Virus record (IMG/VR): IMGVR_UViG_3300010384_000001
Reading direction: 5' to 3' (one strand)
DNA length: 64,000 nucleotides
Source: a virus
This document shows, piece by piece, positions 2,997 through 60,844 of the stretch (its first letter is position 1; the number at the start of each line of letters is the position of its first letter). The translations under genes were made by a program, and so were the position numbers. Below the pieces are notes generated by a model. It had not been told where the DNA came from and did not search any database. It saw only the letters and a list, made by a program, of their open reading frames with translations.

Positions 2997-3488
2997 TTAA
3001 ACCGGAGCTACAGTTTGCGGTTGACTAGCTTGCGCTAATTGAATCTGATTCAGAGCGTAATTCAAATGCTCATTTAATTCGGCAACAACAGGCAGAACCA
3101 ACAACTGGTGCTGATCGATCAGTGCTGCGTATTCTTGGAAGATCTGGATGATGGAGAAGTTCTCATCGATATCTTCGGTGAAGCCAGTCTTACCAGCATG
3201 CTTACGATAAACACGTTGGGTTTTAGTATTCAGCATCTGGACGTCAGCAGACAGACCCTTCACTAAGTTCGCAGTCTTAGCAATGTCTTTTAAATTCGCT
3301 TGGACTTGGGGTGCTAACAGCATTGAGGTCATGCGATGATAACTAACAAACATACTCGCATGAATGTTGTATTGACCTTGCAGGGATTCCCAATTGTTAC
3401 TCGGACCTTGCAACGCCGGATCCTTACGCGGATCAGGATTATTCGGATAAATGTTACCTAATGCTTGATTCAGGGTGTTGTTGCTCAT
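2997..3488 (-). CDS. Hypothetical protein
   Basis: 163-aa ORF, the first gene of the minus-strand operon next to a divergent intergenic region. Confidence 0.7.
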   Translation of the reverse strand: MSNNTLNQALGNIYPNNPDPRKDPALQGPSNNWESLQGQYNIHASMFVSYHRMTSMLLAPQVQANLKDIAKTANLVKGLSADVQMLNTKTQRVYRKHAGKTGFTEDIDENFSIIQIFQEYAALIDQHQLLVLPVVAELNEHLNYALNQIQLAQASQPQTVAPV

Positions 3489-9953: not shown

Positions 9954-10454
9954 ATGTCCGCTAGTACTATCTTTTTAAATGACGCTATCCATCGGATCGT
10001 CAAAGCTCCTGGTGATCAAGGCCGTATCGTTGCCATGGCTGTTGCTAAAGTCGTTGCTGCTACTTCCCCGCTGCCTAGCACGCCGGTGGATGATATTGCT
10101 GAGTACTACATGCAGCAAGTCAATCCGCAAGCTGTGGAACGTATCTCGGAACTGAACGAAGGTGTGATCTTCGCTGCTAAACTGGCGCTCGAGTTCACTC
10201 AACAATTCTGGAAGCAACGTTATTACGCTGCTCATCCGCAGTGTCTGATCAAGGCTAATTTCAATCAATCACTGGAAAGTCTGCTTAACCAAGACCGTAT
10301 CGAAGCGTTTGACTTTAACACGATCGTTTCAGGTGGTCTGTTTGTCCTGTCACTGGATACAGTGCGCTTCCTGAACAAGTACAAGGTAGAAATTGCTAAG
10401 CTGATTTCGGCTTTCTACCAGTATGTCACTCCGGACGACGAAGCTGGAGAGTAA
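9954..10454 (+). CDS. Hypothetical protein
   Basis: 166-aa ORF with an AAGGA SD 7 nt upstream. Confidence 0.7.
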   Translation: MSASTIFLNDAIHRIVKAPGDQGRIVAMAVAKVVAATSPLPSTPVDDIAEYYMQQVNPQAVERISELNEGVIFAAKLALEFTQQFWKQRYYAAHPQCLIKANFNQSLESLLNQDRIEAFDFNTIVSGGLFVLSLDTVRFLNKYKVEIAKLISAFYQYVTPDDEAGE

Positions 10455-10457
10455 GAC

Positions 10458-11861
10458 ATGAGTGACGTTGATATTAATGCATTCATTTACAATGATGCAC
10501 CGGCTCCAGAACCTACTGGTTTCGAAGATAGCCTGAACTTTGGTTCTGAGATTCCGGAAGATGACCTGGTTACCGAAGTACCGGTCGATCCGAGTGTCAT
10601 TGCTGACTTGCTGCCTGAACAAGATGAAATTCAAGTGCAAGCTTCTGCTTTAGAATCACGTCATAATGAATGGTCTTACCTGCGTGACGATATCATCAAT
10701 GCGCGTGGTATGAATCAAGCATTAGCAACGGAAGCTATTGCACTTAAACCTAACTTCGGTAACAACCGTCCGATTGGCTACTACAGCCGTCATACAAGCC
10801 TGACGCGTTATACGACGGTATTGGAAGAGATTGACCAAACCATGCAAAGTGATTTGGTACGTTATCTGGAGAATACCAAAGAGCGCTTGAATCGACTGGA
10901 TGATGTGGCTGTTAAGTTTACACCAGAAATGAAAGACAACTGGGTAAACTTAACCAGCAACCTAGCAGCATTCGGTACGCACTTCTCTGATGCAGTTAAA
11001 CTGCTTAATGAGAAAGGTGAAGCTTGGATTGATGCTGACGTTGTGGCTAAGGCAGGCGAGAACCGTGAAGAGTATGTCGCTAACTCTCTGAAGAATTGCT
11101 TTACCCAACCTGCTGGCTTACTCTCGGCTTTGGTGGATAAAGACATCTACTACATCCTGGGTCAACACTTCTCGGATTACTTGGATCTTCTGGTTGCGCA
11201 TTGCAATGCATGGGATAATTCAGTCGAAGCTTATATTGAAGACGTGAAGAACGCAGGTAACAACGCGATTCCTAAGTTTAATGCTCCTGAAGAATTATCG
11301 ATCAAGTTGCCCGATGGTTCGATGGTCAAGTATTCGGAACTCGCCGACCGCTTGCGTAATGAAGGCAACAATGCTAAGACTTACAGCTCGCGTCGTGAAA
11401 CGCCTCTGACGGTTGACAACTATCTGTTTGCCGCTAGCGCAGCTGCGCAATACTCCGGTATTGAAGGTGTGATTGATCGTTTCAATACCCTTAAAGACAG
11501 GATCCCTGATTATCGTGGCATGATCACTAAGTTAACCGACCTGGTGGCTGACTATGATCGTTTCTCGGATCAACTGGTTCTTTTGAATGAAGAAGTCAAT
11601 GGCTTTGCAACTAAGCTCTTTGATGTGTATCAATGCTTCGTCTATATCGTTGATGAAATTGGTAACTACATCAATGACTTCAAGAGCCAACTGTTAAAGT
11701 TGATTGGTTTGGTTTTACTCTTGGTGGAAACTAAGAATACCGAACTTAACCAAATGACTGACCCTGCTTTGCAAGATGGCGCGCCTTATCTGCCGTCTTG
11801 GAATGAACTGCAAGCGAAGATGATGGCTGCTGTTGCTCCTAACACACCGACTTCTGAATAA
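10458..11861 (+). CDS. Hypothetical protein (acidic N-terminus, largely helical-looking)
   Basis: 467-aa ORF with a GGAGAG SD. It starts 3 nt after the previous stop. Confidence 0.75.
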   Translation: MSDVDINAFIYNDAPAPEPTGFEDSLNFGSEIPEDDLVTEVPVDPSVIADLLPEQDEIQVQASALESRHNEWSYLRDDIINARGMNQALATEAIALKPNFGNNRPIGYYSRHTSLTRYTTVLEEIDQTMQSDLVRYLENTKERLNRLDDVAVKFTPEMKDNWVNLTSNLAAFGTHFSDAVKLLNEKGEAWIDADVVAKAGENREEYVANSLKNCFTQPAGLLSALVDKDIYYILGQHFSDYLDLLVAHCNAWDNSVEAYIEDVKNAGNNAIPKFNAPEELSIKLPDGSMVKYSELADRLRNEGNNAKTYSSRRETPLTVDNYLFAASAAAQYSGIEGVIDRFNTLKDRIPDYRGMITKLTDLVADYDRFSDQLVLLNEEVNGFATKLFDVYQCFVYIVDEIGNYINDFKSQLLKLIGLVLLLVETKNTELNQMTDPALQDGAPYLPSWNELQAKMMAAVAPNTPTSE

Positions 11862-18947: not shown

Positions 18948-19055
18948 TAGACTCATGTCTAGATACTATAGCGACTTCTCTAGGATCCTAGTGACATCCG
19001 CGTAGAAAGAAGTCTATCATTTCTAATTACCTATTGCAATAGGAGTAACAAAACT

Positions 19056-21386
19056 ATGCGTATGCATGCAAACTATGGTGGTCTTCTGAATGGCCGTCTG
19101 AACGTGGCCCGCGAAGAAGACCAACAAGATGCAGTGGTCCTGGATGAAACTCAAGCCACGGCTACCGATGAAGTAACCGCAGAAACCCCAGTTGACGCTG
19201 TCGTCGAAACCCCTGCTGACGTGGTTGCTGAAGTTCCGGCTGAAACTCCGGCTGTTGACACTCCGGCAGATGGCGACGCATTTGTGGACGTCGTTCCGGC
19301 TGAAACGGTGGTTGATCCGTCCACTGCTGAAGCTACCGCTACTGGCGATGTGGTTGAGACCACTCTGGATGTGGCTGCAGAAACCCCGGAAGAAGTTGTA
19401 GCCGATACTGAACCTCTGGCAGATCCGCTGGCTGAAACCTCGCTGGTTGATGCTCCGCTGGAAGATGCCGCCGCCGCTTCGGTTGAGCCGTCGGTTGGTG
19501 AAACTACGGCTGACGTTACCACCGATGTGGATAGCGGTGCCGTGGTCGACGCTGGTACGGACGCAGGCGCTGACGTTGCTGCCGACGCCTCGGCTGCTGC
19601 CACGGTCGACCAAGGTGTTGATGCTACTGGCGATACACTCGCAGCTACCGTAGAAGAAACCCCGGCTACCGATGGCGTGGTTGCAACCACTGAAGTTGAG
19701 ACTCCGGCTGATGTGAATGTTGCTGACACCGTTGAAGGTGAAGCTGCAGCTGCTGACGTTGAAGCTGCTCCGGTTGTCGATGAAGTCCCGGCTGAAGCTG
19801 CTGCGGAGGTTCCGGCTGATGTGAATGTTGCTGAGACGCCTGCGGAAGAAACCCCGGCGGAAGTGGCTGCTGAGACGCCTGCCGACGCTGTCGTCGAGAC
19901 TCCGGCAGAGACGGTTGAAGAAACGCCTGCTGATCCGGTTGCTGACGCTGAAGTCGCAGCAGCTGCAATTCCTGATCTGGCAGTTGGTTCTGTTGTGGCT
20001 GATCCTGTCGCTGAAGAACCGGACGTTGGTACGGTTGAAGGCGGTGCCACTGGTGAAGCTGGTCTGACTGAAGAAGTCGCTGTCAACGACGGTGAAACGA
20101 ATGAAGTCGATCAGATCGATAGCTCGCTGCTGGAAGAAGGTGTCACGGAAGTTGATACCGACATCGATGGCGTGAATGCTTACGATGCCGACATCACCGA
20201 CATGAACGACGAACTGGATGATGTTACCGATAATGCTGGTAAGATCGAAGTAGCGGTGGAATCGCTCCGCATTATTGCTCAAAACGGTGGTCTGGATCGT
20301 TCCGGTGGCACGATTCTGAATCTGCACCTGCAAAGCCTGTATGCGAATATTCCGGGTATGGATGCTAAATCGCAACGTATGTCGATGGAAGCATTCGGCG
20401 GCGCTACGATGAGCAAAGTTGACGGTACGACGCTGGCGATGGAAGAAGCGAAGAGCAATCTGCGCAAGATCCTGGATCATATCGTCGAGATGATTCAACA
20501 GGGTATCGAGTATATCAAAGAAGCCTTTAAGAAGTACTTCGATGAATCCACTGCTCTGTATGTCAAGGCTAAGAAGCTCAAAGAACAAGGTACGAAAACC
20601 AATGGTCTTCCGACTGTTGATAGCTTCGTCGACAATGGTCTGGCTCGTGCTTTGTTCATTCCTGGCAAAGGTATCCGTGCTACGGAAGCCGCTAGTATTC
20701 TGTCGAGTGAAATTAGTAAAGTGATGTCTTCGGCAGAAGCGGGCTATGCTCAAGCTGAAGTGCTGATCTCCCTGATCAAGAGCACTGGTTCGGTTGATGC
20801 TGTGGCTAGTAAGATTCGCGGATCTTTTAGCGCCGGTGATAAAGTGTCGGCTGAGACGGTTGGTATCAATTCGGTTCCGGATGGTGCTGTGGTTACTCGT
20901 GATCGCGTGCTTCCTGGTAACCGAGCAGTCGTTAGTGTTTACCCGGCATCTAACAATGCACCAGTATCGGTGCTGGCTGCTAGCAAGATTCGTCTGGCTA
21001 CGTTTGATACGTCGATGTCTCCTCCTGAAGGCGCTAAGCTGGAAACCCTGTCGAAAGCAGACGCTGTGTCTGTTGCCAACATGGTTCAGCGCACCCTCAG
21101 CTATGTTCTGGCATTCAAGAAGAACATGGGTTCGATCGATAAGGTTAAAGGCGAACTGCTGGCTACCGTGCGTGCTGTTGCTGGTCAAGAAGGCGAGAGT
21201 GCTTCTGGTCTGTCGCAAACCGACATCGTGGCCCTGGCTAAGTGCGCTGCTCAATTCGCTGACCAACCGGCTTCGTCGTTCGTTCCGTATGCGCTCACCA
21301 CCTGCCGCGCTCTGCTGCACTACGCTGAGAAATCGCTGGCAATGCATGGTGCAACTGAAGCTGCTTCCGCTAAGGCTGCTGCTTAA
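19056..21386 (+). CDS. Hyper-acidic N-terminal tract fused to a domain paralogous to the next two genes (putative internal head / ejection-type protein)
   Basis: 776-aa ORF with an AGGAG SD. Residues ~355-500 align by eye with the N-terminal regions of the 444-aa and 435-aa neighbours. Confidence 0.85.
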   Translation: MRMHANYGGLLNGRLNVAREEDQQDAVVLDETQATATDEVTAETPVDAVVETPADVVAEVPAETPAVDTPADGDAFVDVVPAETVVDPSTAEATATGDVVETTLDVAAETPEEVVADTEPLADPLAETSLVDAPLEDAAAASVEPSVGETTADVTTDVDSGAVVDAGTDAGADVAADASAAATVDQGVDATGDTLAATVEETPATDGVVATTEVETPADVNVADTVEGEAAAADVEAAPVVDEVPAEAAAEVPADVNVAETPAEETPAEVAAETPADAVVETPAETVEETPADPVADAEVAAAAIPDLAVGSVVADPVAEEPDVGTVEGGATGEAGLTEEVAVNDGETNEVDQIDSSLLEEGVTEVDTDIDGVNAYDADITDMNDELDDVTDNAGKIEVAVESLRIIAQNGGLDRSGGTILNLHLQSLYANIPGMDAKSQRMSMEAFGGATMSKVDGTTLAMEEAKSNLRKILDHIVEMIQQGIEYIKEAFKKYFDESTALYVKAKKLKEQGTKTNGLPTVDSFVDNGLARALFIPGKGIRATEAASILSSEISKVMSSAEAGYAQAEVLISLIKSTGSVDAVASKIRGSFSAGDKVSAETVGINSVPDGAVVTRDRVLPGNRAVVSVYPASNNAPVSVLAASKIRLATFDTSMSPPEGAKLETLSKADAVSVANMVQRTLSYVLAFKKNMGSIDKVKGELLATVRAVAGQEGESASGLSQTDIVALAKCAAQFADQPASSFVPYALTTCRALLHYAEKSLAMHGATEAASAKAAA
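19113..20240 (+). repeat. Coding low-complexity acidic repeat (ETPA/DVVA-type)
   Basis: About 375 consecutive codons contain no K/R/H and, by my count, about 100 D/E. Degenerate units such as ETPADAVVETPA and EVPADVNVAETPAEE recur. Confidence 0.85.
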
Positions 21387-21401
21387 GTTAAGCAATTAAA
21401 G

Positions 21402-30608: not shown

Positions 30609-33600
30609 ATGTCGCAACTTGACAATGAAATTATCGCATTTCGCGACAGCATGACTAAAGTCGGCCAGTTTGCAAATGGCGACGAGAATACCGATGTGCA
30701 AACCGCAAATGGTCCGGTGCCTAGTATTGCTAAGGTGGCTAAGGTTGCCCGCAGTATTATTGACCAGATTGTGGCGGTTAATCAAGGCGCGTCTTTACGA
30801 GTCGATGCCGTTGTAACCTACACCGATGAAGAGAAGGCTAATGCTAAAACCAACATTGGCTTGGAACGAGTCGATAATACACCTGACTTAGAAAAGCCAG
30901 TCTCGCAGCCGCAAGCTGTAGCTATTTCTAATGCATTATCAACGATCAACGCCAAAGAAGATCCGTTGAATAAGAACAAAGCGAATGGGTACGCTGGTTT
31001 AAGTGGTATGCGGATAGTGATGCGTAACGTCACTGATACCACGACGAACTACTTAACCACGGCCAGTACAGATACTCGTATTTGGACGATGCCGGATAAG
31101 TCGGGTATTGTTGCATTGACTTCTGATCTTCCGACAAACTTAAGTGGCACGAATACCGGTGACGAGACTCAAGCTACGATCTTAGCCAAGCTGCAAATCC
31201 AAGCCATTGCCGGGATTAATACGGGCGATGAAACGACGGGTTCTATCCTCAATAAGCTCAACATCACTGCGGCTGAGGATACTGCGAATAAAGTCACGAG
31301 CTTTGCTGTAGTCAATAACACTTTGTACCCTACGGTGCAAGCGGTTAAGTTCTACGTTGACAACACCATGGTCGGTGTGATCCGTGACTGCGGTAACTAT
31401 GATGCAAGTACGAATACGTGGCCTACTACCGGTGGCTCTGGCGTAGGTGGCGCAATCACCAAAGGTAACTTCTGGTACGTCAGTACTCCGGGTACATTAG
31501 GCGGTACGCCAGTTAATGTTGGTGACTCGTTTAGAGCTATGGTTGATAATCCTGGTCAGACTGCAGCTAATTGGTCGGTGCTGGAATCCAACATTGGTTA
31601 CGTGCCTTACAATGCCACTAACCCATCTGGCTACATTTCTGGCATTACCAGTGAGATGATAGCAACTGCGTTAACCTATACGCCGTTAGGTCCAGGTGAT
31701 CGAAACGCAAGCAGTGGTGTTGCTGGATTAACAGGTTTTGCTCTTAACCTGATGAATAATGCTGGCACGGTCCTGTCGATTCTGTCGAACACCAACACAG
31801 CTAGTCGTACCTACACTCTGCCGGATAAAGACGGTACGGTTGCAATGATTGATGATGTCGTTGCTAACTACCCAGGCCCTCCAACTATTACACTCACTGG
31901 TGATGCTAGCGGTAGTGGTACGACGACGATTCCGGTTACTCTTAATGACAATGCCGTATCATTGGCAAAGTTAGCACAAATCCCGACTGCAAGTTTCTTA
32001 GGTCGTACGACTGCTGCTACGGGTAACGTGGAATCAATGACAACGTCGCAAGTTAAAACACTGCTGACGATTGACCAAGTTAACAATACATCGGACGCAA
32101 ATAAGCCAGTCAGCGCAGCGCAACAAACTGCTTTAAATGCTAAAGAGAATACGTCAAACAAAGTAGTAGACTTTACGGTTCTTGACAACGTTAAATACCC
32201 TACCACGTTAGCAGTGAAGAACTACTGTGATGGTCGTTTGACGAACGTAGTTGTTGACTGCGGTAGCTGGGATGCTTCTGGTAATACTTTCCCGACGACT
32301 GGCGGTACTGGTGCGAGTGGTACGATTGTTAAAGGTAACTTGTTCTTCGTGTCAGTAGCAGGTTCGTTAGGCGGTAAAATCGTTAACGTTGGCGATAGCT
32401 TCCGAGCACTGGTAGATGCACCGGGTCAGACTGCAACTAACTGGGACGTGTTGGAATCTAACATCGGTTATGTTCCGTATAACGCTACCAACCCGGCTGG
32501 TTACATCTCCGGCATCACCTCCACCATGGTGGCCACAGCGTTAGGTTATACTCCGGTTAATCCTAACGTTAAAGATGCATCTGATGGTTTTGTCGGCTTA
32601 ACTGGTTACAAGATCAACTTTAAGAATTCGACTGGTGCGAATACGTCGTATATGCAGCATAGCAACACTGCATCGCGTACTTACACTTACCCGGATAAAG
32701 ATGGTCAAGTGGCATTGCTGTCGGATATCACTGGTACCAACAGTGGTATCAACACTGGCGACCAAACCATTACCTTAACCGGAGATGTGCAAGGTTCTGG
32801 TACTGGTACGTTTGTGACGGCGATCTCTGGTAACGCAGTAACGTTCGGTAAGATGCAACAGATCACCACAGCTACGTTCTTAGGCCGTAACTCGGCAGGC
32901 AATGGTAACATTGAAAGCCTGGCAGCTAGCACGGTTAAAACGATGCTGTCGTTGGACCAGGTTAGTAATACCTCCGACGCCAACAAACCTGTATCGACTG
33001 CACAGCAAACTGCACTTAACGCTAAAGAATCGTTGTCGAATAAAGCCAGTGACTTCAGCGTGCTGGATAACACTAAGTATCCTACTACGCAAGCGGTGAA
33101 GACCTTGGTGGATAGCGTAGCTGCTGGCGTCGCAACTAATACCTGGATCGATTGTGGTAATTATGATGCTTCGGTTAATGCCTTCCCATCTACTGGCGGT
33201 ACGGGTACATCGAACGCTATTAAACGCGGCAACACTTGGTTAGTATCAGTCGCTGGTACATTAGGTGGTAAAGCTGTCAATGTTGGCGACACCGTCCGTG
33301 CTTTAGTCGACGCTCCTGGTCAAACCACTGCTAACTGGGCGATACTTGAGGGTAACTTAGGTTTCGATCCGATTAACAAAGCTGGCGATACAATGCTGGG
33401 CGTGTTAGGTCTGGTTCCGTTCGGCACAATCGCAAGTGCTGCTACTGTTAACTTCAATAGCACAACCAGTAACATGGTTGAAGTCACCGGCACGACCACC
33501 ATTACTGCTATCACGTTAGCTGACGGTGCATTCCGTTTCGTACGCTTTGCTGGTCGCTTAACCTTAACCAATGGCGCTTCACTGCTGTTACCGACGGGCG

Positions 33601-34040
33601 CGAATATTCAAACCTCGGTTGGCGATACTGCGGTGTTCGTGGGTAAAGGCACAGCAACGTTATGCTTAGTGTATCAATCAGTTAACGGTGGTTCGGCTTT
33701 AGTAGCTGGTAAAGACCGTACTCGCGCGGTCACTGCGAATGGATCGATTAATATCGATCTTAATACCGGCGATCAAGCCACCATGATGGAAGTGTCGTTA
33801 ACTGCTAACTCAACGATTACCTTCACTAACCCACCGCCTTTGAACAATGAAACGTTCAGCTTCAGTATGCGTGTCACAAACGGTGCTGATAGTTTAGCGA
33901 TGGCTTTTGGTAATACGATCAAATGGGCAGGCGGTAATGTTCCGCCTCGTACAACAACCAATGGTGCTGTGGATATCTGGACCTTCTTATACGACAACGG
34001 TACGTATTACGGGTCCTTAGCAATTCAAGACGCCAAGTAA
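30609..34040 (+). CDS. Tail fibre protein with three ~290-aa internal repeats
   Basis: 1143 aa with a TAAGGA SD. VDNT(P/S)D..KPVS..Q..AL..K motifs are typical of phage fibres, and there are triplicated C-G-(N/S)-(Y/W)-D-A-S ... NVGD(S/T)(F/V)RA(L/M)VD.PGQT..NW modules. Confidence 0.85.
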   Translation: MSQLDNEIIAFRDSMTKVGQFANGDENTDVQTANGPVPSIAKVAKVARSIIDQIVAVNQGASLRVDAVVTYTDEEKANAKTNIGLERVDNTPDLEKPVSQPQAVAISNALSTINAKEDPLNKNKANGYAGLSGMRIVMRNVTDTTTNYLTTASTDTRIWTMPDKSGIVALTSDLPTNLSGTNTGDETQATILAKLQIQAIAGINTGDETTGSILNKLNITAAEDTANKVTSFAVVNNTLYPTVQAVKFYVDNTMVGVIRDCGNYDASTNTWPTTGGSGVGGAITKGNFWYVSTPGTLGGTPVNVGDSFRAMVDNPGQTAANWSVLESNIGYVPYNATNPSGYISGITSEMIATALTYTPLGPGDRNASSGVAGLTGFALNLMNNAGTVLSILSNTNTASRTYTLPDKDGTVAMIDDVVANYPGPPTITLTGDASGSGTTTIPVTLNDNAVSLAKLAQIPTASFLGRTTAATGNVESMTTSQVKTLLTIDQVNNTSDANKPVSAAQQTALNAKENTSNKVVDFTVLDNVKYPTTLAVKNYCDGRLTNVVVDCGSWDASGNTFPTTGGTGASGTIVKGNLFFVSVAGSLGGKIVNVGDSFRALVDAPGQTATNWDVLESNIGYVPYNATNPAGYISGITSTMVATALGYTPVNPNVKDASDGFVGLTGYKINFKNSTGANTSYMQHSNTASRTYTYPDKDGQVALLSDITGTNSGINTGDQTITLTGDVQGSGTGTFVTAISGNAVTFGKMQQITTATFLGRNSAGNGNIESLAASTVKTMLSLDQVSNTSDANKPVSTAQQTALNAKESLSNKASDFSVLDNTKYPTTQAVKTLVDSVAAGVATNTWIDCGNYDASVNAFPSTGGTGTSNAIKRGNTWLVSVAGTLGGKAVNVGDTVRALVDAPGQTTANWAILEGNLGFDPINKAGDTMLGVLGLVPFGTIASAATVNFNSTTSNMVEVTGTTTITAITLADGAFRFVRFAGRLTLTNGASLLLPTGANIQTSVGDTAVFVGKGTATLCLVYQSVNGGSALVAGKDRTRAVTANGSINIDLNTGDQATMMEVSLTANSTITFTNPPPLNNETFSFSMRVTNGADSLAMAFGNTIKWAGGNVPPRTTTNGAVDIWTFLYDNGTYYGSLAIQDAK
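31271..33390 (+). repeat. Tandem coding repeats (~880-nt period) within the fibre gene
   Basis: Unit landmarks recur. ITLTGD is at ~31887 and ~32769. V(N/S)NTSDANKPVS is at 32079 and 32961. The C-G-x-(Y/W)-D-A-S codons are at ~31389, ~32259 and ~33152. Confidence 0.8.
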
Positions 34041-51138: not shown

Positions 51139-52290
51139 ATGAAAAATATTCGCATTGCTCGTTATCCAGCCGGAACCTCGTGCGTCGAGAACGGTCATCT
51201 TCTTCAACAGCAACTGAAACATCTGTTTGAAAACTGCATCATTGATGCGGATACGGGAGCCACCAAGACCAACCGCTTGTTCTTGACATTGCATCCTAAC
51301 TCATCGACGTTAGCAAACGACGTCTTGACGATGTGGATGAATTCGCTGACAATCAACTATGCTACGAAAGAAGATATCAGCGAAACTTTCAAAGCAGCCG
51401 GAACAGATGTGTCGAAAGAACACATCACTTCGGTTAGTATTACTATTGACAACGTTCTATACGAAGATCTGCTGCCGGTCACGAACATTCCAGACAACCA
51501 TGTAATCCAGTTTACCTTCAGCAAGAAGATCAAGAATAATGCCGACTATCAGTATCTGAATCTGATGCGTGATATTCTTGCTAATGGCACTGTGAAGACG
51601 GATCGCACAGGCACCGGCACGACTTCTGTGTTTGGTCGCCAGATGCGTTTCGATTTGAACGAAGGCATTCCTCTTTTGACTACGAAGAAGGTGCATCTCA
51701 AATCTATTGTCCATGAGCTGATCTGGTTCCTGGCAGGCGATACCAATGTTAAGTATCTGCAAGATAACGGTGTAACCATCTGGGATGAGTGGGCTGATAA
51801 GAATGGTGAACTCGGTCCCGTATACGGTGCACAATGGCGTAAGTGGCATGATGTCCAAATCCTTCATCCTGAACGTCATGCTGAAGAAATTAAAATCTTC
51901 AAAAAGCAAGGCTATCTTCCTACTGGTTCTGCACGTCGTGATCTAGTTCCGGGTGAATACATGATGTTGGAGAAATTCATCGACCAGATCGAAGAGGTCA
52001 TGAATACTCTCAAGAATAATCCTGATTCGCGTCGCATTATCGTTTCGGCTTGGAACGTGGCTGAACTACCGCTGATGAAGCTGGCTCCTTGCCATTCACT
52101 GTTTCAATTCTACGTAACTGATTTGACTGTAACTGAACGAGCCGAAATGTCTACGAGCCGCGAACATCATCGTTTTAAAGACACGATGTGGTTCCAAGGG
52201 ATGGCTAATGGTAATCGGGAAAAGTACCACGCTATTTTCGATGAAGAAGATATTCCGCGGCAGCGTTTGTCTTGCCAGTTGTACCAGCGT
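51139..52290 (+). CDS. thyA: Thymidylate synthase, exon 1 (with ~135-aa N-terminal extension)
   Basis: From aa ~137 it reads [30 protein letters not shown]..., then [41 protein letters not shown] and LSCQLYQR. The frame then derails into SLN-stop. Confidence 0.9.
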
Positions 52291-53406
52291 TCGCTTAACT
52301 GAGCGCCTCTTAGGAGTGATCCTAAGAGCAAATCTCTCTAAAACGGGAACCTCTCAGAAATGAGACAATCCGTTGCTAAACGGTAAGTAACAAACATTGA
52401 ATGGTAGTCCTAGTAATATACTATGTCTTTATTACGAAAGCATGACATGGAATTTACAGGAGTATACATTCTAACCAACCCAAGAACTGGTGAGTTCTAT
52501 GTTGGTAGTTCTCAGAACATCAAAAAACGAATTGAACGACACATTCGTGAATTGAACCAAGGCATTCATCATTGCTCTAAGTTTCAAGCAGCTTGGAAGA
52601 AAGATCCATATTTCCAAGTAACGATATTCCCAACAGAAACAAGGGAAGACGCTTACGAGTTAGAACAAGAATTACTCGATCGTTACTCAGCCACAAAACT
52701 GTTACTCAATGTACTCCTTGTTGCTAAGGGAGGCGGTGATACACTTACGCGAGATCCTAAACGTGAGGAACGTATCGCTAGAATCAAACAGACATTAATT
52801 AACAGAATGCATGAGTTAACGAAAGAGGAGAAGAGATTACTCTTCGGAAGACCAGGTTCAAAAAATGGCATGTGGGGCCGAATCCACACTGATGAAGTTA
52901 AGAAGCGTATTTCTGAAGTACACAAAGGAAACACGTATAACTTAGGTGCAGTATTTAGCGCTGAACATCGTCGCAAGATCTCTGAGAATGCATCAAAACG
53001 AGTAGGTGAATTAAATCCGTTCTACGGAAAGGTTCATAGCGAAGAAACTAGGAAACGACTATCTGAACTTGGTAAAGCCAGAGATACGTTACCTGCTAAT
53101 TCTCGTAAAGTTAAAGTTGACAATAAAGTCTACGAATCACTGACTGAAGCTTCTCGTCAACTAAACATTTCACCAGCCCTGATGGTTTATCGAATCAATA
53201 GCAGTAAAGATAAATATTCGGGTTACAGTTATCTTACCGAAATGCCCAACGACTAGCCTTTAAGGCGTAGGCTCCAAGTGGAGTCGAAACGGGAGAGGTC
53301 TCGGAAATGAGATCGTGATATAGTCTGCTCTGCATGGCGACATGCAGCAGTTAGGAATTGAAGAAACCTAACGGGAATAGTCTAACGAACTATTCTGAAC
53401 ACAATG
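52291..53406 (+). mobile_element. Group I intron (T4 td-like, subgroup IA2-type) carrying a homing endonuclease gene
   Basis: The 5' exon ends in U (52290) and the intron ends in G (53406). There is a P1 pairing GCGU/GCGC and a P2 hairpin at 52307-52328. The core segments strongly resemble the T4 td intron as I remember it. Joining the exons restores ...[14 protein letters not shown]... in frame. Confidence 0.85.
52423..53256 (+). CDS. GIY-YIG homing endonuclease (I-TevI-like) encoded within the intron
   Basis: GVYILTNPRTGEFYVGSSQNIKKRIERH carries GIY...YVG and the conserved R. There are NUMOD3-like repeats (GMWGRIHTDEVKKRISE, NPFYGKVHSEETRKRLSE) and a C-terminal HTH-like YESLTEASRQLNISPALMVYRI. 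Confidence 0.9.
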   Translation: MSLLRKHDMEFTGVYILTNPRTGEFYVGSSQNIKKRIERHIRELNQGIHHCSKFQAAWKKDPYFQVTIFPTETREDAYELEQELLDRYSATKLLLNVLLVAKGGGDTLTRDPKREERIARIKQTLINRMHELTKEEKRLLFGRPGSKNGMWGRIHTDEVKKRISEVHKGNTYNLGAVFSAEHRRKISENASKRVGELNPFYGKVHSEETRKRLSELGKARDTLPANSRKVKVDNKVYESLTEASRQLNISPALMVYRINSSKDKYSGYSYLTEMPND

Positions 53407-53703
53407 TCAGCCGACGTCTTCCTCGGTGTGCCGTTCAATATCGCTTCGTATGCAATCCTGACGCACATGTTTGCTCAACAGCTTAATATGGCTGTCGGTG
53501 ACTTTGTTTGGACTGGTGGTGATGTTCATCTGTACTCGAACCACATGCAACAAGTTGAGACCCAGCTGCAGCGCACCTGGCGCGAACTGCCTAAACTGAA
53601 GTTTACCCGTAAACCAGCTTCAATTTACGATTACAAGTTTGAAGACTTCGAAATCGTAGGTTACGATCCTCATCCAGGCATCAAAGCTCCTGTGGCGGTG
53701 TGA
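53407..53703 (+). CDS. thyA: Thymidylate synthase, exon 2
   Basis: [21 protein letters not shown]...[15 protein letters not shown]...[14 protein letters not shown] is nearly identical in pattern to the E. coli ThyA C-terminus. Confidence 0.9.
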
Positions 53704-54602: not shown

Positions 54603-54875
54603 ATGTCGAAATGTCACTGCAGCTGTGAAGAGGTCACCCTGGCTGAAGCACTCATCAGCTTAGTGCTGATAGGGATTGTTATTGGTGCTATGATTTATTG
54701 GGATAAGAAGTCAAATGAACTTACGCCAGCAGATCACAAGTACCTGCAAGATCACAAGTGTGTGAGGAGTGGTTTTGCTGGTCGTAACGCAGAACCTACT
54801 TACCAGTGCGATAATGGTGTTTGGTTGCGTGGTGAGATTAAGAAGAAGAGTAAGAAAGATTCTTCCGATGAGTAA
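54603..54875 (+). CDS. Single-pass membrane protein, Cys-motif paralog A
   Basis: The ORF opens at TTG 54576. ATG 54603 follows TAAGGA by 7 nt. The TM is LISLVLIGIVIGAMIY and the motif is HKCVRSGFAGRNAEPTYQCDNGVWLRGEI. Confidence 0.65.
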   Translation: MSKCHCSCEEVTLAEALISLVLIGIVIGAMIYWDKKSNELTPADHKYLQDHKCVRSGFAGRNAEPTYQCDNGVWLRGEIKKKSKKDSSDE

Positions 54876-55221
54876 GATACTTGAACGGGGCAAGGAAATC
54901 TTGGGAAGATTTATCGGTTTCGTTGTTGACCACGATGAAGGTATTTTTACAACGTTCTTTATGATGATAGTTGTGGCGGTGGTAGTTGGTTTCTGCGTGG
55001 CGGTCGGTAAGTTTATTGACAGTAATAATGCCAAGCAGCGAGAGCTTTTCCAAATGCGTACTCTTTTGTTCTCGGATTATCAACATCTTCATCATTGCGA
55101 ACGTGCTGGTTTTGCTGGTAGAGATCCTGAACCGTATTACAAGTGCGATACTGGAATCTGGCTTACTGAAGAAATCATTCAGCAACGTCAAACCGAACTA
55201 CTGCAAGAAGCTCGGAAATAA
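54868..55221 (+). CDS. Single-pass membrane protein, Cys-motif paralog B
   Basis: ATG 54868 overlaps the previous stop (ATGAGTAA). The TM is FFMMIVVAVVVGFCVAV and the motif is HHCERAGFAGRDPEPYYKCDTGIWLTEEI. Confidence 0.65.
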   Translation: MSKILERGKEILGRFIGFVVDHDEGIFTTFFMMIVVAVVVGFCVAVGKFIDSNNAKQRELFQMRTLLFSDYQHLHHCERAGFAGRDPEPYYKCDTGIWLTEEIIQQRQTELLQEARK

Positions 55222-55225: not shown

Positions 55226-55257
55226 AGTAGGTAGGATTAACTCCTACCTACTCTTTT
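55226..55257 (+). terminator. Intrinsic terminator
   Basis: Perfect 11-bp stem AGTAGGTAGGA / TCCTACCTACT with a 5-nt loop, followed by CTTTT. Confidence 0.8.
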
Positions 55258-55281: not shown

Positions 55282-56364
55282 ATGTCGTTGGATTGGGATG
55301 ATGAAGGAACGTCGGCAGTAAATGCAGAACAAGTCGATAGTGACGTTGATACTTCTAAACGGGTTAACGCGTCAGACAAACGCATGATTAACGCAACTAC
55401 TGACGTGAACCAACTCGTGCCGTTTAAGTATAAATGGGCTTGGGATCAGTACCTGAAGGCTTGTGAGAATCAATGGATGCCGCAAGAGTACATCATGGAA
55501 CAAGATGTCGCTCAGTGGAATTCTGGGTCACTGTCTGAACAAGAGAAGCAACTGGTGATTCGTAATCTTGGTCTGCTTACGCTTAATGACCGTGCAGGTG
55601 GTTTGGCTATTGGTATCTATCGTCACGTGACTGCTCCAGAAGTGCGTCAGTACTTGCTGCGTCAAGGTATGGAAGAAGCAATTCGTCACCACGTCTATTA
55701 CCACGTGAGTGATGCACTCAAGATTGACGAGCAAGCCGTTTACGACACTTACAATAGTTTCGCTTCAGTTCGTGCTAAGAACGAATTCATTAAACCGTAT
55801 CTGAATCTGTTCCAAGACCCTCAGTTCAAAACCGGCACTCCTGAGAGCGACGCGCAATTCCTTAAGTCGCTTGTCGTATATGCTTGTATCCTGAAGGGTC
55901 TGTTCTCGACAGTTAGCTTTACTCAGATGCTGACGCTGGGTCGTAACGGCAAGATGGTAAAGACTTCGGAACAATACCAACTGATGCTGCGTGATGAACT
56001 GACGCACTTCAAAGCAGCAGCTAACATCGTTAGTACGATCCGTATCGAGAACCCGCATTTGTGGCAACCTATCTTTGCAGATGTGACTGCGTTGATTCGT
56101 AAAGCTGTAGAATTGGAGTTTGCGGTAGCTAAAGAAACACTGCCTGCCGACATACTCGGTATGAACGCTGATATGTTCCTGACCTATCTGCAATCGGTAG
56201 CGAATCAACGCGCTGCTGCTGTCGGTATTGGTGTTCTGTTCCCAGGTGCTAAGAATCCCTTCCCGTGGTTTGCTGAAGCATTTGGTCTGCGTAACGAAGG
56301 TGGTACTGCAGTTGCAGCTAAAGCCGTGGAAGCTAAAACTGGCGGTACTCTCAACTGGGAGTAA
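55282..56364 (+). CDS. nrdB: Ribonucleotide reductase beta (R2)-family protein with non-canonical metal-site residues
   Basis: R2 landmarks are present: LVPFKYKWAWDQYLKACENQWMPQE, APEVRQYLLRQGMEEAI.HH.Y, VSF, YQLMLRDELTH, and a C-terminal tail ...GGTLNWE. The expected His is Arg135 and the expected Glu is Lys205. Confidence 0.75.
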   Translation: MSLDWDDEGTSAVNAEQVDSDVDTSKRVNASDKRMINATTDVNQLVPFKYKWAWDQYLKACENQWMPQEYIMEQDVAQWNSGSLSEQEKQLVIRNLGLLTLNDRAGGLAIGIYRHVTAPEVRQYLLRQGMEEAIRHHVYYHVSDALKIDEQAVYDTYNSFASVRAKNEFIKPYLNLFQDPQFKTGTPESDAQFLKSLVVYACILKGLFSTVSFTQMLTLGRNGKMVKTSEQYQLMLRDELTHFKAAANIVSTIRIENPHLWQPIFADVTALIRKAVELEFAVAKETLPADILGMNADMFLTYLQSVANQRAAAVGIGVLFPGAKNPFPWFAEAFGLRNEGGTAVAAKAVEAKTGGTLNWE

Positions 56365-56970: not shown

Positions 56971-57648
56971 ATGAAGAAATTCGCAACTCTGTTTGCTGTT
57001 GTAGCTCTCCTGGCTGGCTGCGATGGTCAACCGCAACAACAAGTTCAATATCAACAACCGGCTCCTGTCGTGGTTCAGCAGCCTGCGCCGACTGTCGTTG
57101 TGCAGCAAGCTGATAATCACAGTGATGCTGGCGCCCTTCTGGCAGGTGCGGCTATTGGCGCAGTTGCCGCTACCGCTCTGAGTGACAATGGTCGTGATCG
57201 TTACTATCAAGCTCCTGCCATTCAATCACAACCGCAACAAGTCACCAAGATTGTTAACAAGACCGTTGTAGTGAATAACAACGTAGTGGCAGCACCTGTG
57301 CAACCGGCCGCGTCCGCTGTAGCTGCAGTTGCTCCGGCTGTTGTTCAACCAGCTGCGCCCAAAGTTACGAGTTTCGCTATTCCTGGTACTTCCAATCCAG
57401 TTCCAGTTGTTAAATCCATGCCTGCTCCTGTAACTCAAGTTGCACTAGCCAAACCGGCAGTACCGGCTCTTACTTACGCTGCTGCTCCGAAAGCATTGCC
57501 TGCTCCCGCTCGAGTAGATCTGAGTAAGCCTGCGCAAGTATCTTACGCTCCGAAACAAACGACGTCGTATGCTGCTCCTAAGTTGAGCTATGGTTCTTCG
57601 TCTTCGTCCTCTAGTAGTGCAATGAAGGTTACCTACCGCGGAAAGTAA
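56971..57648 (+). CDS. Lipoprotein, Pro/Ala/Val/Gln-rich with poly-Ser tract
   Basis: MKKFATLFAVVALLAGC carries the lipobox LAGC. The SD is AAAGGAA. There are QQPAPVVVQQPAPTVVVQQ repeats and SSSSSSSS near the C-terminus. Confidence 0.8.
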   Translation: MKKFATLFAVVALLAGCDGQPQQQVQYQQPAPVVVQQPAPTVVVQQADNHSDAGALLAGAAIGAVAATALSDNGRDRYYQAPAIQSQPQQVTKIVNKTVVVNNNVVAAPVQPAASAVAAVAPAVVQPAAPKVTSFAIPGTSNPVPVVKSMPAPVTQVALAKPAVPALTYAAAPKALPAPARVDLSKPAQVSYAPKQTTSYAAPKLSYGSSSSSSSSAMKVTYRGK

Positions 57649-58213: not shown

Positions 58214-59308
58214 ATGCAAATTGTAACTAGCAGTCAAAACTTTAGTGGTAAAACTTTAGCTGTGGTAATTGCTCGTTTCTCTATGCTGCACAATGAACAT
58301 GTTCGCATGCTCAAAGAAATGGCAAAAGAGAATACCCACTTGCTTATTCTGATTGGATCTGCGAACCGTCGTAAGTCCAACAAGAATCCTTTTGATTTTA
58401 TCGAACGTAAACGTGTGCTCGAACATGTGCTCGCGACTTTCACGAGTAACTATTCGATTGTGCCTCTGTTTGATAATCTTTACAAGGAAGCACGTTGGGA
58501 GTCAGAGGTACAGCGACACGTGTATGAATTTGCAGTACCTAACGGTATTCATGATTCTAACGTAACGCTGTACGGTCAAGATAAAGATCAGACTACTTAC
58601 TATCTCAAGAAGTTCCCGCAATGGAAACGTCGTGATTTGGGTGTTCAGGTTGATATCGACGCTACTCGTCTGCGCGATGAGTGGTTCGCTAACGAGCAAA
58701 AGCTTGGCAACAGTATACTCTTAGATCAACACCTGCCACCGCAGATGAAGATCTTCCTGGAACACCGTGAGTTCGATACGAACGCACAGCGTGATTATCG
58801 CTATTACCTTAGCGAGACAGAGAAGTTCAAAGACTATCCCTACCAGGATACGCTCAGCTTCATTTGTGTGGATGCGATTATTGAGTGTGCTGGACATATC
58901 CTGACTGTGACTCGTGCAAATGAACATGGTCCTGGTTATGGTTGCCGTGCATTACCAGGTGGTTTCAAAGAGAGAAACTTGTCGCTGTTTGATTCAGTGA
59001 TTAAGGAAATCTACGAAGAAACCAATTTGCGTGTATCTGAGAAAACGCTGCGGCTTGCTCTGCGTAAGCAACATGTGTTTGATCACCCAGCGCGCAATAA
59101 CGGTATCCCTCGTGTCACTCATGGTTTCTACTTCAAGTTGGAACCGCGTGATGATCATGGTAATCCGCCTCGTGCTAAAGGTGGCGATGATGCGAAAGCA
59201 ACTTGGCTGCCAAATAACGGCGTGGATTGGATTCCGACTGGCCACATCCTGAGCGCTAAAGAGATTATGTACGACGACCATCCAGATATGGTTGAGTACT
59301 TCGTCTAA
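58214..59308 (+). CDS. natV: Bifunctional NMN adenylyltransferase / Nudix hydrolase
   Basis: The N-terminal LAVVIARFSMLHNEH is an (H/T)xGH-type nucleotidyltransferase motif, as in NadM/NadR. The C-terminal Nudix box is GGFKERNLSLFDSVIKEIYEETNL. The architecture matches Vibrio phage KVP40 NatV. Confidence 0.8.
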   Translation: MQIVTSSQNFSGKTLAVVIARFSMLHNEHVRMLKEMAKENTHLLILIGSANRRKSNKNPFDFIERKRVLEHVLATFTSNYSIVPLFDNLYKEARWESEVQRHVYEFAVPNGIHDSNVTLYGQDKDQTTYYLKKFPQWKRRDLGVQVDIDATRLRDEWFANEQKLGNSILLDQHLPPQMKIFLEHREFDTNAQRDYRYYLSETEKFKDYPYQDTLSFICVDAIIECAGHILTVTRANEHGPGYGCRALPGGFKERNLSLFDSVIKEIYEETNLRVSEKTLRLALRKQHVFDHPARNNGIPRVTHGFYFKLEPRDDHGNPPRAKGGDDAKATWLPNNGVDWIPTGHILSAKEIMYDDHPDMVEYFV

Positions 59309-59374
59309 TACCACAAACAAGAACGGGCTTACCAGTCCCTCACTGGTGACGTAAATAATTGGGATTCAATTATC

Positions 59375-60844
59375 ATGTTAGAACTTATTAAACCTTTCAA
59401 TATCATCCTCTGGTGTGACACCTACAAGTTCGACCACGTCTATCAGATGCCTAAGAAATCTAAGCGACTGGTATCAGCAGTAGTGCCGCGTAAGAAAACG
59501 TGGTTTACTGATGAAATCGTCGCAATGGGTCAAACCTTTATTTCGCATGTGTTTGCTACGGCGCGACTCGAGCAGTGGATGATTGACGAAGCAGAAGTTG
59601 AAGTCACTGAGCAAGGTTATACTTTCAACCGTGAAGGTTGGGAATACATCCTCCGTGTTTACGGTGGTCGCATTCCCCTTACTTTCTTTGGTGTGGAAGA
59701 AGGTCGTATCGTTAAACCACAAACACCGATTCTTCTTGTTACTCATGAAGACGAACAAGTCAAATGGCTGGTTCCGTATTTTGAGCCAGTGATTCAATCG
59801 ACGGTCTGGTCGATGTCGACGACTGCTTCGATTTGCCGCTATATGCGTAAAGTGGCTGCTAAGTATTTCAAGATGACTGGCGGTAACATGGCCATGCTTG
59901 ATTACTTCGTACACTTCTTTGGTGATCGTGGTGCAGATTCTCCGGACGAAACACCTGTTCTCAAAGGCATGGCGCACGCGGCAATCTTCAAAGGTAGCGA
60001 TTGTGGACGCGCTAATGGGTACATTAAGCGTCTCTACAACACCGGTAAACCTCGCACTAGTTCTGTTGTAGCTACCGAGCACACCACCATGTGCTTGAAT
60101 TCTAATGCTGAAGCAAAAGATGACTTCGGTGCTATGCAGATGGTTATGGAACTTCTGCACCGTGTGGCGGCTCGTGCCAAAGCCGGTATTGGTATTCCTG
60201 TGGCTTCTGCTGTTCCTGATACCTACGATGATGAACGTTTCGTAAGGGAGTTCATTCCGAAGTTCAAGGACGAAATCCTTAACTGCGGTGCTCGCCTTGT
60301 GACTCGTCCTGACTCAGGTGACCCAACTACTAAGCTGGCGCAAGTGTTAGGCTGGCTGGAAGAGACTTTTGGTTCGACTCCGAATGACGCTGGTTATCGT
60401 AATCTGCCGTGGGCCGTTGGCGCGCTGTATGGTGACGGTATCAACGTAGAGTCGTTCGAGTCTGTCATTAAAGGTGCTGTCGATAAAGGCTGGTGCGTTG
60501 ACAATTTCCTGTTGGGTTGCGGTGGCGGTATCGCTAACGATGGTAGCCGCGACTGGTTTAGCTTCAGCATGAAGGTTATTGCTGAGTTCCGTGACGGCGG
60601 CTGGAAACGTGTTCTGAAAGAGCCGAAATCCGATCTTGGTAAGAAATCCTTGTCGGGTCTGGTGCGTTGCCGTGAAGATGAAAACGGTAACCTCGAAGTG
60701 TATGATGCTATTAACGAGAACAGCTTGTATTCGTTCTTTACTCCAGGTCCGGGACACCGCCTGTGGTTGAACGAAGGTCGTCGTGAATGGCGTCAGAAAT
60801 TCGAAGAGGACGTTTGCGTTCGTGCTCTTGAAGGTATTGACTAA
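59375..60844 (+). CDS. nadV: Nicotinamide phosphoribosyltransferase (NAMPT/NadV)
   Basis: 489 aa. The N-terminal ...ILWCDTYKFDH..., FGDRGADS, YGDGIN and GCGGGI segments fit NAMPT-family landmarks, and it is adjacent to the NMNAT gene. Confidence 0.8.
   Translation: MLELIKPFNIILWCDTYKFDHVYQMPKKSKRLVSAVVPRKKTWFTDEIVAMGQTFISHVFATARLEQWMIDEAEVEVTEQGYTFNREGWEYILRVYGGRIPLTFFGVEEGRIVKPQTPILLVTHEDEQVKWLVPYFEPVIQSTVWSMSTTASICRYMRKVAAKYFKMTGGNMAMLDYFVHFFGDRGADSPDETPVLKGMAHAAIFKGSDCGRANGYIKRLYNTGKPRTSSVVATEHTTMCLNSNAEAKDDFGAMQMVMELLHRVAARAKAGIGIPVASAVPDTYDDERFVREFIPKFKDEILNCGARLVTRPDSGDPTTKLAQVLGWLEETFGSTPNDAGYRNLPWAVGALYGDGINVESFESVIKGAVDKGWCVDNFLLGCGGGIANDGSRDWFSFSMKVIAEFRDGGWKRVLKEPKSDLGKKSLSGLVRCREDENGNLEVYDAINENSLYSFFTPGPGHRLWLNEGRREWRQKFEEDVCVRALEGID

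Follow-up and report, generated by a model that had tools for sequence, protein, structure and literature searches.

The six cofactor ligands and the relay tyrosine of the beta subunit of ribonucleotide reductase (RNR), a textbook metalloenzyme, have been treated as invariant, and departures from this rule, such as class Ic, class Ie and the yeast protein Rnr4, have repeatedly opened new chapters in the study of the enzyme. The yeast Y4 protein (Rnr4) is devoid of the residues needed for a diiron centre and makes no radical, yet it has been retained in the RNR system (PMC3824934). The apicomplexan R2_e2 protein (PfR4 in Plasmodium) is without the C-terminal tyrosine, has kept the R1-binding C-terminus, and interacts with both R2 and R1 as an alpha2-beta-beta-prime complex (PMC3824934). 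The class Ie proteins (QSK/VPK), which descend from NrdF and are encoded together with nrdI and nrdE, are catalytically active and employ a dihydroxyphenylalanine (DOPA) radical; three of their carboxylates have been replaced, but the Asp, both His ligands and the radical-transfer path have been kept (PMC11846895, 10.1101/348268). Among the phages, an older survey recorded genomes that carry nrdB only and left the function of the gene open (PMC3653736). Here, we examine an nrdB-like gene in a stretch of 64,000 nucleotides from the IMG/VR virus record IMGVR_UViG_3300010384_000001, and this whole stretch is referred to below as the window. Judged by its alignments and predicted fold, the encoded protein is a full-length homologue of the class I RNR beta subunit (NrdB), and its probable role is that of an accessory or decoy subunit devoid of catalysis, not that of an enzyme with a new chemistry.

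The gene and the element that separates it from the preceding gene are located as follows:

55282-56364, plus strand: nrdB-like gene with an ATG start, 360 codons and a stop (from the open reading frame call and its translation); it encodes a degenerate relative of the class I RNR beta subunit (a pseudo-beta or beta-prime)
55226-55252, plus strand: hairpin followed by a run of T, terminator-like, between the preceding gene and the nrdB-like gene

The open reading frame (ORF) is intact, and an AAAGGA ribosome-binding site lies 8 nt 5' of its start. Its product matches Pfam PF00268 with E = 6.7e-62 over positions 2-281 of the 281 in the profile, and its best-scoring family is NCBIfam NF005550 (PRK07209; 404.1 bits against a cut-off of 309). 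A phmmer search of the PDB chains returned the Chlamydia trachomatis R2c structures 1SYY, 2ANI and 4D8F, plus 6Y2N, with E values of ~1e-84 to 1e-89. The AlphaFold2 (AF2) model has a predicted local distance difference test score (pLDDT) of 68.4, with 62-66 around residues 100-140, and a predicted template-modelling score (pTM) of 0.70; its top Foldseek matches are again Chlamydia R2c, with a template-modelling score (TM-score) of 0.83 normalised to the target, which places it in the class I R2 fold. The whole-length likeness to R2 that a first, sequence-only reading of this DNA had noticed by eye is thus borne out by the full PF00268 profile, by the NF005550 family and by the Chlamydia R2c structures. 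Membership in NF005550 is nonetheless a matter of sequence only, and the ligand and relay tyrosine columns described below contradict the functional equivalence that the term "equivalog" implies. The nearest cellular homologues are betaproteobacterial NrdB proteins (Methylotenera and other Methylophilaceae, Massilia and Collimonas), which are ~50% identical over the full length; the best match to a phage protein has 43.5% identity.

The ligand columns were read from four independent alignments: phmmer against the PDB, MAFFT, hmmalign to the family hidden Markov model (HMM), and a MAFFT alignment that included the E. coli K-12 NrdB. All four concordantly equate D103 with E. coli D84, E132 with E115, R135 with H118, Y139 with Y122, K205 with E204, E239 with E238, and H242 with H241. 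In place of the six-ligand set (D/E, E, H, E, E, H), the window protein therefore presents D103, E132, R135, K205, E239 and H242. The full canonical residue set was found in 129 of the 269 homologues surveyed and is by far the commonest pattern. The residues concerned, together with those seen in the clade of ten phage sequences to which the window protein belongs, are the following:

55588-55590, plus strand: Asp103, first-ligand column (E. coli D84), retained; a two-residue deletion follows it in the helix; in other clade members the column holds G, A, V, K, N or Y
55675-55677, plus strand: Glu132 (E. coli E115), the sole ligand-column residue that is invariant throughout the clade; from charge bookkeeping, a putative salt-bridge partner of Lys205
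55684-55686, plus strand: Arg135 (codon CGT), where E. coli H118 and Chlamydia H123 supply the first His ligand; the clade has R three times, V three times, and T, M, P and S once each
55696-55698, plus strand: Tyr139, a retained residue of the radical-Tyr column (E. coli Y122), in which the clade has Y, F or Q
55894-55896, plus strand: Lys205 (codon AAG), fourth-ligand column (E. coli E204); Lys in nine of the ten clade members
55906-55911, plus strand: Ser209-Thr210, where a Phe-Tyr pair of the hydrophobic pocket is otherwise conserved; Ser209 stands at the position of E. coli F208
55996-56007, plus strand: second E-x-x-H, E239...H242 (E. coli E238/H241), retained here; Q/H, Q/Q, V/H or L/H in other clade members

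Arg135 and Lys205, on which the sequence-only reading had been built, fall in ligand columns in every alignment, and the H136, H137, Y139, E239 and H242 that it listed are all present. That reading had named one result that would undo it, namely a profile alignment with His136 or another Glu in a ligand column; no alignment gives this result, and hence no six-ligand site is rescued. A register-shifted site, which it had also proposed, is contradicted by the same columns. None of the alignments opens a gap from E132 to Y139, H136 and H137 directly follow R135, H137 is invariant even in the canonical relatives that have the ligand His, and H136 is a Pro in the closest relative (P0002, 58% identical). 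As to the conservation of the two substitutions among relatives, P0002 has the same Arg and Lys and the lysine is nearly constant; the arginine is not, and it is rather the loss of the first His ligand that is common to all ten sequences. Three further defects had gone unnoticed: Ala351 (see below), Ser209, and the two-residue deletion right after Asp103, because of which even the D103 ligand may be out of register. Moreover, an alignment of 27 bacterial relatives has 248 columns with a conservation of at least 95%; at 130 of these the window protein and/or P0002 differ, in many cases with one and the same new residue in the two proteins (e.g., Y141H, G227K and E284K).

The formal charge summed over the six ligand columns is ~0 or -1 in every clade member, as against -4 for the canonical apo site, and the E132-K205 pair is the constant element of this pattern across the clade. 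Basic side chains may have taken the place of the metal ions as partners of the buried carboxylates, as the authors of the class Ie study remarked for their system, where the R2 site likewise became charge neutral (10.1101/348268). As read from these columns, the dimetal site has been dismantled by the change of His to Arg135, the change of Glu to Lys205 and the deletion beside Asp103, and the pocket Phe has been lost.

A similar dissection can be made of the path by which the radical leaves the subunit, of the face that docks on alpha, and of the C-terminal tail:

56332-56334, plus strand: Ala351 (codon GCT), where the C-terminal Tyr for radical transfer would stand (Chlamydia Y338, within E-Y-Q)
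55474-55488, plus strand: W65-M-P-Q-E69, equivalent to E. coli W48...E52; the Trp belongs to the radical pathway and the Glu to the interface, and neither varies in the clade
56338-56361, plus strand: tail TGGTLNWE, which matches the TGGAL(S/N)W(D/E) tail of betaproteobacterial NrdB; from established R2 biology, the presumed alpha-binding peptide
55372-55491, plus strand: residues 31-70 (DKRMINATTDVNQLVPFKYKWAW...NQWMPQE), the most conserved segment of the clade, with a mean pairwise identity of 0.72-0.97 per 10-residue block

We take Chlamydia Y338 to be the functional equivalent of E. coli Y356, which relays the radical to alpha; the E. coli tail is too divergent for Y356 to be aligned directly, and the equivalence rests on Y338 and the E-Y-Q motif of the family. 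A Tyr occupies the A351 column in all of the canonical relatives and in none of the ten clade members. The counterparts of the radical Tyr and of the pathway Trp and Asp (E. coli Y122, W48 and D237) are present as Y139, W65 and D238, of which Y139 is not conserved in the clade. Since cofactor ligands, pocket Phe and relay Tyr have all been lost, the window protein should be capable of neither normal cofactor assembly nor radical delivery, and we consider it very probably non-catalytic. The alignments show equally that the residues of the alpha-beta interface and the putative alpha-binding tail motif have been retained.

These features characterize a family and not a single aberrant gene. An HMM search run exhaustively over 1.84 billion representative proteins yielded one 50%-identity cluster for the window protein (738 bits), the next match being at 385 bits, and a profile search of 5.8 billion proteins placed nine 90%-identity clusters, on contigs of up to 184-323 kb, ahead of the first canonical NrdBs. 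In a neighbour-joining tree the clade groups together, apart from other degenerate NrdB-like proteins, a topology in which long-branch attraction is possible. The window protein, with four of its six ligands kept, is the least degenerate member, and others are reduced to a single one. The invariant residues of the clade are W65 and E69 (E. coli W48 and E52), E132, H137, R237 and D238 (E. coli R236 and D237) and L357; W359 is a Phe in one member and otherwise invariant, and a T-L-x-W-(D/E) tail is kept. A second well-conserved block covers residues 111-130 (76-81% pairwise identity). At the C-terminus the last four residues keep the L-x-W-(D/E) motif, while the preceding 15, which form the relay-Tyr region of the real enzymes, have diverged to 22%. 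The ORFs are intact and of full length in ten diverged syntenic genomes (44-75% amino acid identity in the pairs compared), and the clade shares the derived residues K205, S209 and H141. The ratio of nonsynonymous to synonymous substitution rates (dN/dS, by the Nei-Gojobori method) is 0.19 between the window gene and that of P0002 and 0.12 between those of loci L018 and L020; these are the least saturated pairs, with dS still near saturation, and the values are rough. The gene order is also maintained, all ten loci having a ~1050-amino acid protein, dTMP kinase, ThyA, a few small ORFs, the nrdB-like gene, Band_7, NadM-Nudix, NAMPT, NADAR and DHFR. By all of these comparisons the clade is under purifying selection and constitutes a functional family. 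The sequence-only reading had listed a regulatory pseudo-subunit among its options, and it is this option that the selected clade favours, with its first His ligand and relay Tyr lost, its radical Tyr variable, and its docking residues and tail kept.

By its gene content the window belongs to a phiKZ-like jumbo phage genome of ~322 kb, so that the earlier supposition of a jumbo-phage source was right: there are internal head proteins (PF12699) and phiKZ-type PHROG families, including DNA polymerase and virion proteins, and an RNA polymerase beta-like gene is situated just beyond the window's edge. The identical nrdB-like protein is found on six contigs of ~322.5 kb from the Joint Genome Institute (JGI). 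A megablast comparison with GenBank returned no match for the phage. A conserved 986-amino acid virion protein identifies Burkholderia phage FLC9 (48%) and Ralstonia phages RP12/RP31 (~42%) as the nearest cultured relatives; these phages are not among the best matches listed for the nrdB-like protein or for the neighbouring NadM. Together with the closest cellular NrdBs, the relatives of the virion protein suggest a betaproteobacterial host and a host-derived nrdB-like gene, the capture of which would be old, since its GC content (0.474) equals that of the window (0.466).

No partner gene for an RNR was encountered in the vicinity. A tblastn search with the Collimonas NrdA (from its nrdAB locus) gave no match in the window or in 84 kb of the source contig, and the sequence-only observation that the window holds neither nrdA nor a second nrdB stands over this larger distance. 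Leaving aside one ORF antisense to NAMPT/Band_7 that was taken as spurious, the window's ORFs of at least 500 amino acids are without RNR Pfam domains. The gene tables of the flanks (16.3-36.8 kb and 71.1-99.1 kb of the contig) list dTMP kinase, ThyA, NadM-Nudix, NAMPT, NADAR, DHFR and Macro, and contain neither NrdI nor an RNR large-subunit Pfam family; the stretch between these two regions is the virion-protein module, whose small ORFs were not scanned individually for NrdI. Among the relatives examined, no nrdA or active beta gene was present within the flanks covered (up to 10 kb, less on short contigs).

Two other phage loci can be set beside this one. A related jumbo-phage contig of 226.8 kb (L015, IMGVR_UViG_3300046507_000773) encodes, at the syntenic position (10001-11095), a fully canonical NrdB with D-E-H-E-E-H, the radical Tyr and E-Y-Q; this gene follows dTMP kinase and ThyA, and no nrdA lies within 10 kb of it. 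This suggests that the ancestral state was a phage beta that worked with a non-adjacent, perhaps host, alpha, and that the function of the clade descends from RNR. In another jumbo-phage contig, of 249.9 kb (L143, Logan SRR10034626), a degenerate nrdB, whose product is P0163, is located 17-23 nt upstream of a canonical nrdB (855-3334 for the two). The ligand columns of P0163 read D-E-Q-A-K-H, with an Ala for the radical Tyr and no C-terminal relay Tyr, and the canonical copy, of 478-480 amino acids, has a long N-terminal extension, D-E-H-E-E-H, the Tyr and E-Y-Q. P0163 occurs on 10 contigs, and the pair is present in all four of the loci displayed, each of which breaks ~600-850 bp upstream; it looks like a natural beta-prime/beta gene pair.

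A wider survey of the ligand columns, made on the best matches of the representative-protein search and of two IMG/VR scans, indicates that degenerate forms of NrdB are not uncommon in metagenomes: over 40 distinct patterns were seen, and most of them keep the C-terminal L-x-W-(D/E). Several of the genes are on other contigs of 200-270 kb (L028/L137, L135 and L143), some of them on viral contigs of 205-269 kb. The dozens of degenerate proteins catalogued (P0131-P0264) include patterns such as SAHLLH, DEQAKH, KEHQEQ and NEFKLQ. We found no paper that describes degenerate phage NrdB forms, in a searchable literature that is incomplete and thus offers no proof; the earlier suggestion of an undescribed variant was, to that extent, a fair one.

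What, then, could such a protein do for the phage? The reading that we favour, with a probability of roughly 0.4, is by analogy with Rnr4 and PfR4: the window protein would be a beta-prime-type small subunit that dimerises with a beta carrying the radical and binds alpha in an alpha2-beta-beta-prime complex. Arg135 and Lys205 would neutralise the buried carboxylates that remain, and the conserved Glu132-Lys205 core would permit the four-helix bundle to fold without metal. The kept face (the equivalents of W48, E52, R236 and D237), the N-terminal segment and the T-L-x-W-(D/E) tail would enable the protein still to join RNR complexes. Because there is no alpha or active beta nearby, it would have to find its partners either in the betaproteobacterial-type NrdA and NrdB of the host or among phage genes in other parts of the 322-kb genome. 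The beta-prime version is favoured by the location of the gene in a module for deoxynucleoside triphosphate (dNTP) supply, by the canonical syntenic beta of L015 and by the tandem of degenerate and canonical nrdB in L143. Several points weigh against it. In the 84 kb searched of the ~322-kb contig, with ~240 kb remaining outside the search, there is neither an alpha gene nor an active beta, and such an absence would make the host NrdB the partner in the heterodimer. Host beta2 dimers are stable and host synthesis falls during infection, conditions in which mixed dimers are harder to form. Furthermore, the tandem pair of L143 belongs to a different phage lineage and may have degenerated independently, the confidence of the AF2 model is moderate, and the salt bridges of Arg and Lys are ones that we infer from charge. 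The same retained surfaces could also serve an antagonist. A dead beta homodimer, occupying the host NrdA by means of its host-like tail and docking face, might throttle or re-time host dNTP synthesis during takeover as a decoy, or dominant negative, a reading that we regard as possible but doubtful. The TGGTLNWE tail is near-identical to those of betaproteobacterial NrdBs, and its L357 and W359 have been conserved while the preceding 15 residues, including the relay Tyr, diverged; no RNR partner genes are near in the source phage or in the flanks covered of its relatives. R2 C-terminal peptides are, as is well established, classical competitive inhibitors of R1-R2 association (cited in PMC3824934), and phage RNR activity can trigger the DRT9 defence (PMC13434031), a conceivable, if speculative, reason to damp dNTP surges. 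An inhibitor is, however, hard to reconcile with a gene placed within a dNTP-supply module (dTMP kinase, ThyA and DHFR), with the canonical and presumably activating beta at the syntenic position in L015, or with the tandem of L143, which would be odd for such a function, and it would bring no obvious benefit to a lytic phage. No earlier case of a viral RNR decoy is known to us, and this too we count against it. It is accordingly with some hesitation that we entertain the notion that a phiKZ-like lineage turned a captured host nrdB into a beta mimic, a viral pseudoenzyme with the effect of stopping or redirecting the host's production of deoxynucleotides.

The R2 fold might instead have been recruited outside RNR biology altogether, for example as a scaffold for the phage's nucleotide-metabolism enzymes or to bind another phage or host partner. 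The extent of change at conserved columns (130 of 248, often to the same residue in the window protein and P0002), the constant position beside ThyA and the nicotinamide adenine dinucleotide (NAD) salvage genes, and the many degenerate NrdB-like proteins with varied tails in metagenomes are all compatible with this. What makes it rather unlikely is that the invariant residues are those of the RNR interface and pathway (the equivalents of W48, E52, R236 and D237), along with the alpha-binding tail motif, and these are hard to explain without an RNR partner. A protein that is still catalytic, its D103, E132, E239 and H242 binding a single metal or its site working without metal as in class Ie, with a Tyr139 radical that reaches alpha by a non-canonical route, is highly improbable. 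It is true that four of the six ligands, Tyr139, W65 and D238 are kept, and that class Ie demonstrates that an R2 with a Lys in its site can function without metal. But the relay Tyr is an Ala351 here and is absent throughout the clade, the radical Tyr and the ligands have decayed freely, down to a single ligand, and the F208-equivalent pocket is lost. Class Ie, for its part, keeps both His, the Asp and the whole transfer path, derives from NrdF and needs NrdI, of which the flank gene tables have none, and the best class Ib model (TIGR04171, NrdF) gives the window protein 43 bits against a cut-off of 355. With the radical exit broken at A351 and the class Ie features absent, the metal-free radical site of the sequence-only reading is unlikely. 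Equally improbable is a decaying relic, that is, a captured host nrdB drifting towards a pseudogene. Long branches, the many substitutions at otherwise invariant columns and the lack of a nearby alpha gene would suit it; against it stand the intact ORFs of ten diverged syntenic genomes with a dN/dS of 0.12-0.19, the shared derived K205, S209 and H141, the blocks of 72-97% pairwise identity, and a GC content that matches the phage.

The neighbourhood of the gene has several other features of interest. The window's ThyA is split into a first part at 51139-52302 (plus strand; profile positions 2-169, after an N-terminal extension of ~137 amino acids) and a C-terminal part at 53404-53703 (plus strand). 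Between them is an ORF for a GIY-YIG/NUMOD3/I-TevI-like homing endonuclease (52423-53256), itself flanked by sub-threshold Rfam matches to group I introns at 52281-52508 (24 bits) and 53179-53347 (22 bits); at the gathering threshold, Rfam gave no match in the whole window. The arrangement resembles the T4 td intron with its I-TevI, and ThyA is continuous in locus L023. On the contig of P0002 (L001, 1202-2644) ThyA is a single ORF of 480 amino acids, as against the usual 260-320, which is consistent with the N-terminal extension in the window. Just 5' of the nrdB-like gene, the small ORFs at 54603-54875 and 54868-55221 (both plus strand) are paralogues, in which a hydrophobic segment is followed by the motif C-x-R-x-GFAGR-x-x-EP-x-Y-x-CD-x-G-x-WL; no family match to it is known, and weak homologues of the two occupy the same position in L018 and L023. 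On the 3' side, the ORF at 56971-57648 (plus strand, 225 amino acids) has a lipoprotein-like signal (LLAGC), a low-complexity region rich in Ala, Pro, Val and Gln, and a poly-Ser end, and is without a Pfam match. It is followed at 58214-60844 (plus strand) by a nicotinamide mononucleotide (NMN) adenylyltransferase/Nudix protein (NadM-like, 34% identical to KVP40 NatV) and NAMPT, a pair that resembles the phage NAD+ reconstitution pathway directed against NAD-depleting defences. NADAR and DHFR are just past the right end of the window (12000-12905 and 14780-15415 of L109), and a Macro-domain protein (427-912, minus strand) lies at its left end. Two ORFs of ~780 amino acids each, at 19023-21395 (minus strand) and 19056-21386 (plus strand), overlap almost completely on opposite strands; the plus-strand ORF carries PF12699 and, hence, the minus-strand ORF is probably spurious. 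The tail-fibre-like ORF at 30609-34040, when used as a taxonomic marker, gave spurious short matches only.

At the level of the family the pattern is clean: a phage lineage maintains a beta homologue under purifying selection while dismantling its cofactor site and radical exit and preserving the surfaces that face the other RNR subunits. Radical chemistry of a new kind, which would be the most exciting outcome, is unlikely. If the protein is a beta-prime helper, phages would have reinvented the eukaryotic beta/beta-prime arrangement and would provide a simple bacterial system for the study of half-site RNR complexes. If it is instead a decoy, it would be a natural protein inhibitor of the bacterial class I RNR, a validated antibacterial target, and a new kind of host-takeover factor. 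A mimic of this sort would, to our knowledge, be the first phage-encoded protein to act on RNR by subunit mimicry. Whatever the function, the clade offers a natural series that runs from the canonical site through four, three, two and one retained ligands, and in which the presumed Glu132-Lys205 pair illustrates how a dimetal four-helix bundle can be stabilised without metal. There is a practical consequence as well, in that the automated annotation of all these proteins as "ribonucleoside-diphosphate reductase beta chain" overstates the metabolic capacity inferred for jumbo phages.

It remains to place the window protein among the known systems. With the betaproteobacterial class Ia NrdB (NF005550/PRK07209, the family that also includes the Chlamydia R2c of 1SYY/4D8F) it shares the fold, the N-terminal DVNQLVPFKYKWAW segment and the TGGxLxW(D/E) tail. 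It differs from this NrdB in lacking two ligands (His to Arg and Glu to Lys), the pocket Phe and the relay Tyr, and in the two-residue deletion after the first ligand; in Collimonas, moreover, nrdA is immediately upstream of nrdB, whereas no nrdA adjoins the window gene. Class Ic was considered and rejected, Chlamydia R2c having a Glu at ligand 1 and a Phe at the radical position where the window protein has D103 and Y139. Nor is it an R2lox, in which five ligand positions are identical to those of R2 and the sixth is a Glu (PMC3824934); here two ligand columns are substituted. The resemblance to class Ie lies in a Lys in a former ligand column, a near-neutral site and the retention of the R2 fold. 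But in class Ie it is Lys213 (of Lys213...His216) that replaces the bridging Glu of the second E-x-x-H (10.1101/348268), and this is the E239 column, which is retained here. The window protein has one His and one Glu replaced and its Lys is in the E204 column, so that the equivalent Lys that the sequence-only reading ascribed to class Ie was misplaced by one ligand position. Membership in class Ie was therefore rejected: the protein is not derived from NrdF, the substituted columns are different and include a lost His, the relay Tyr is replaced by A351, and the flank gene tables have no NrdI or nrdE.

Other parallels are with R2 homologues that depart from the canonical set of residues. P0163 of L143 is, like the window protein, a phage-encoded homologue of NrdB whose ligand set is degenerate, whose relay Tyr is missing and whose C-terminus is aromatic; it is nonetheless more degenerate (the E52 and R236 equivalents are also changed), has no radical Tyr, adjoins a canonical nrdB, is not syntenic, and may be of independent origin. 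PfR4/R2_e2 similarly has lost the C-terminal radical-transfer Tyr and kept the C-terminal R1-binding residues, but it retains the iron-coordinating residues, of which the phage protein has lost two (and other clade members up to five), and it belongs to another lineage, while the phage protein has no partner gene nearby. Yeast Rnr4, the beta-prime of an alpha2-beta-beta-prime enzyme, is like the window protein an R2-fold paralogue without the diiron-centre residues; it is, however, eukaryotic, the genome that encodes it also encodes its active partner, Rnr2, and its heterodimerisation and chaperone role are experimentally established, whereas a partnership of the phage protein with an active beta is a proposal. 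Proteins of the Rnr4/PfR4 type are defined by an R2 fold with loss of cofactor ligands or of radical transfer and by a retained R1-binding motif (PMC3824934), and all of these are found here, the motif being T-L-x-W-(D/E). Such proteins also form a heterodimer with a beta that bears the radical and enter an alpha2-beta-beta-prime holoenzyme, and it is the tandem pair of L143 that lends indirect support to a like arrangement for the window protein. The nrdB-like product of this jumbo phage would thus appear to be a new form of a known type, a non-catalytic R2 paralogue that is carried by a phage.

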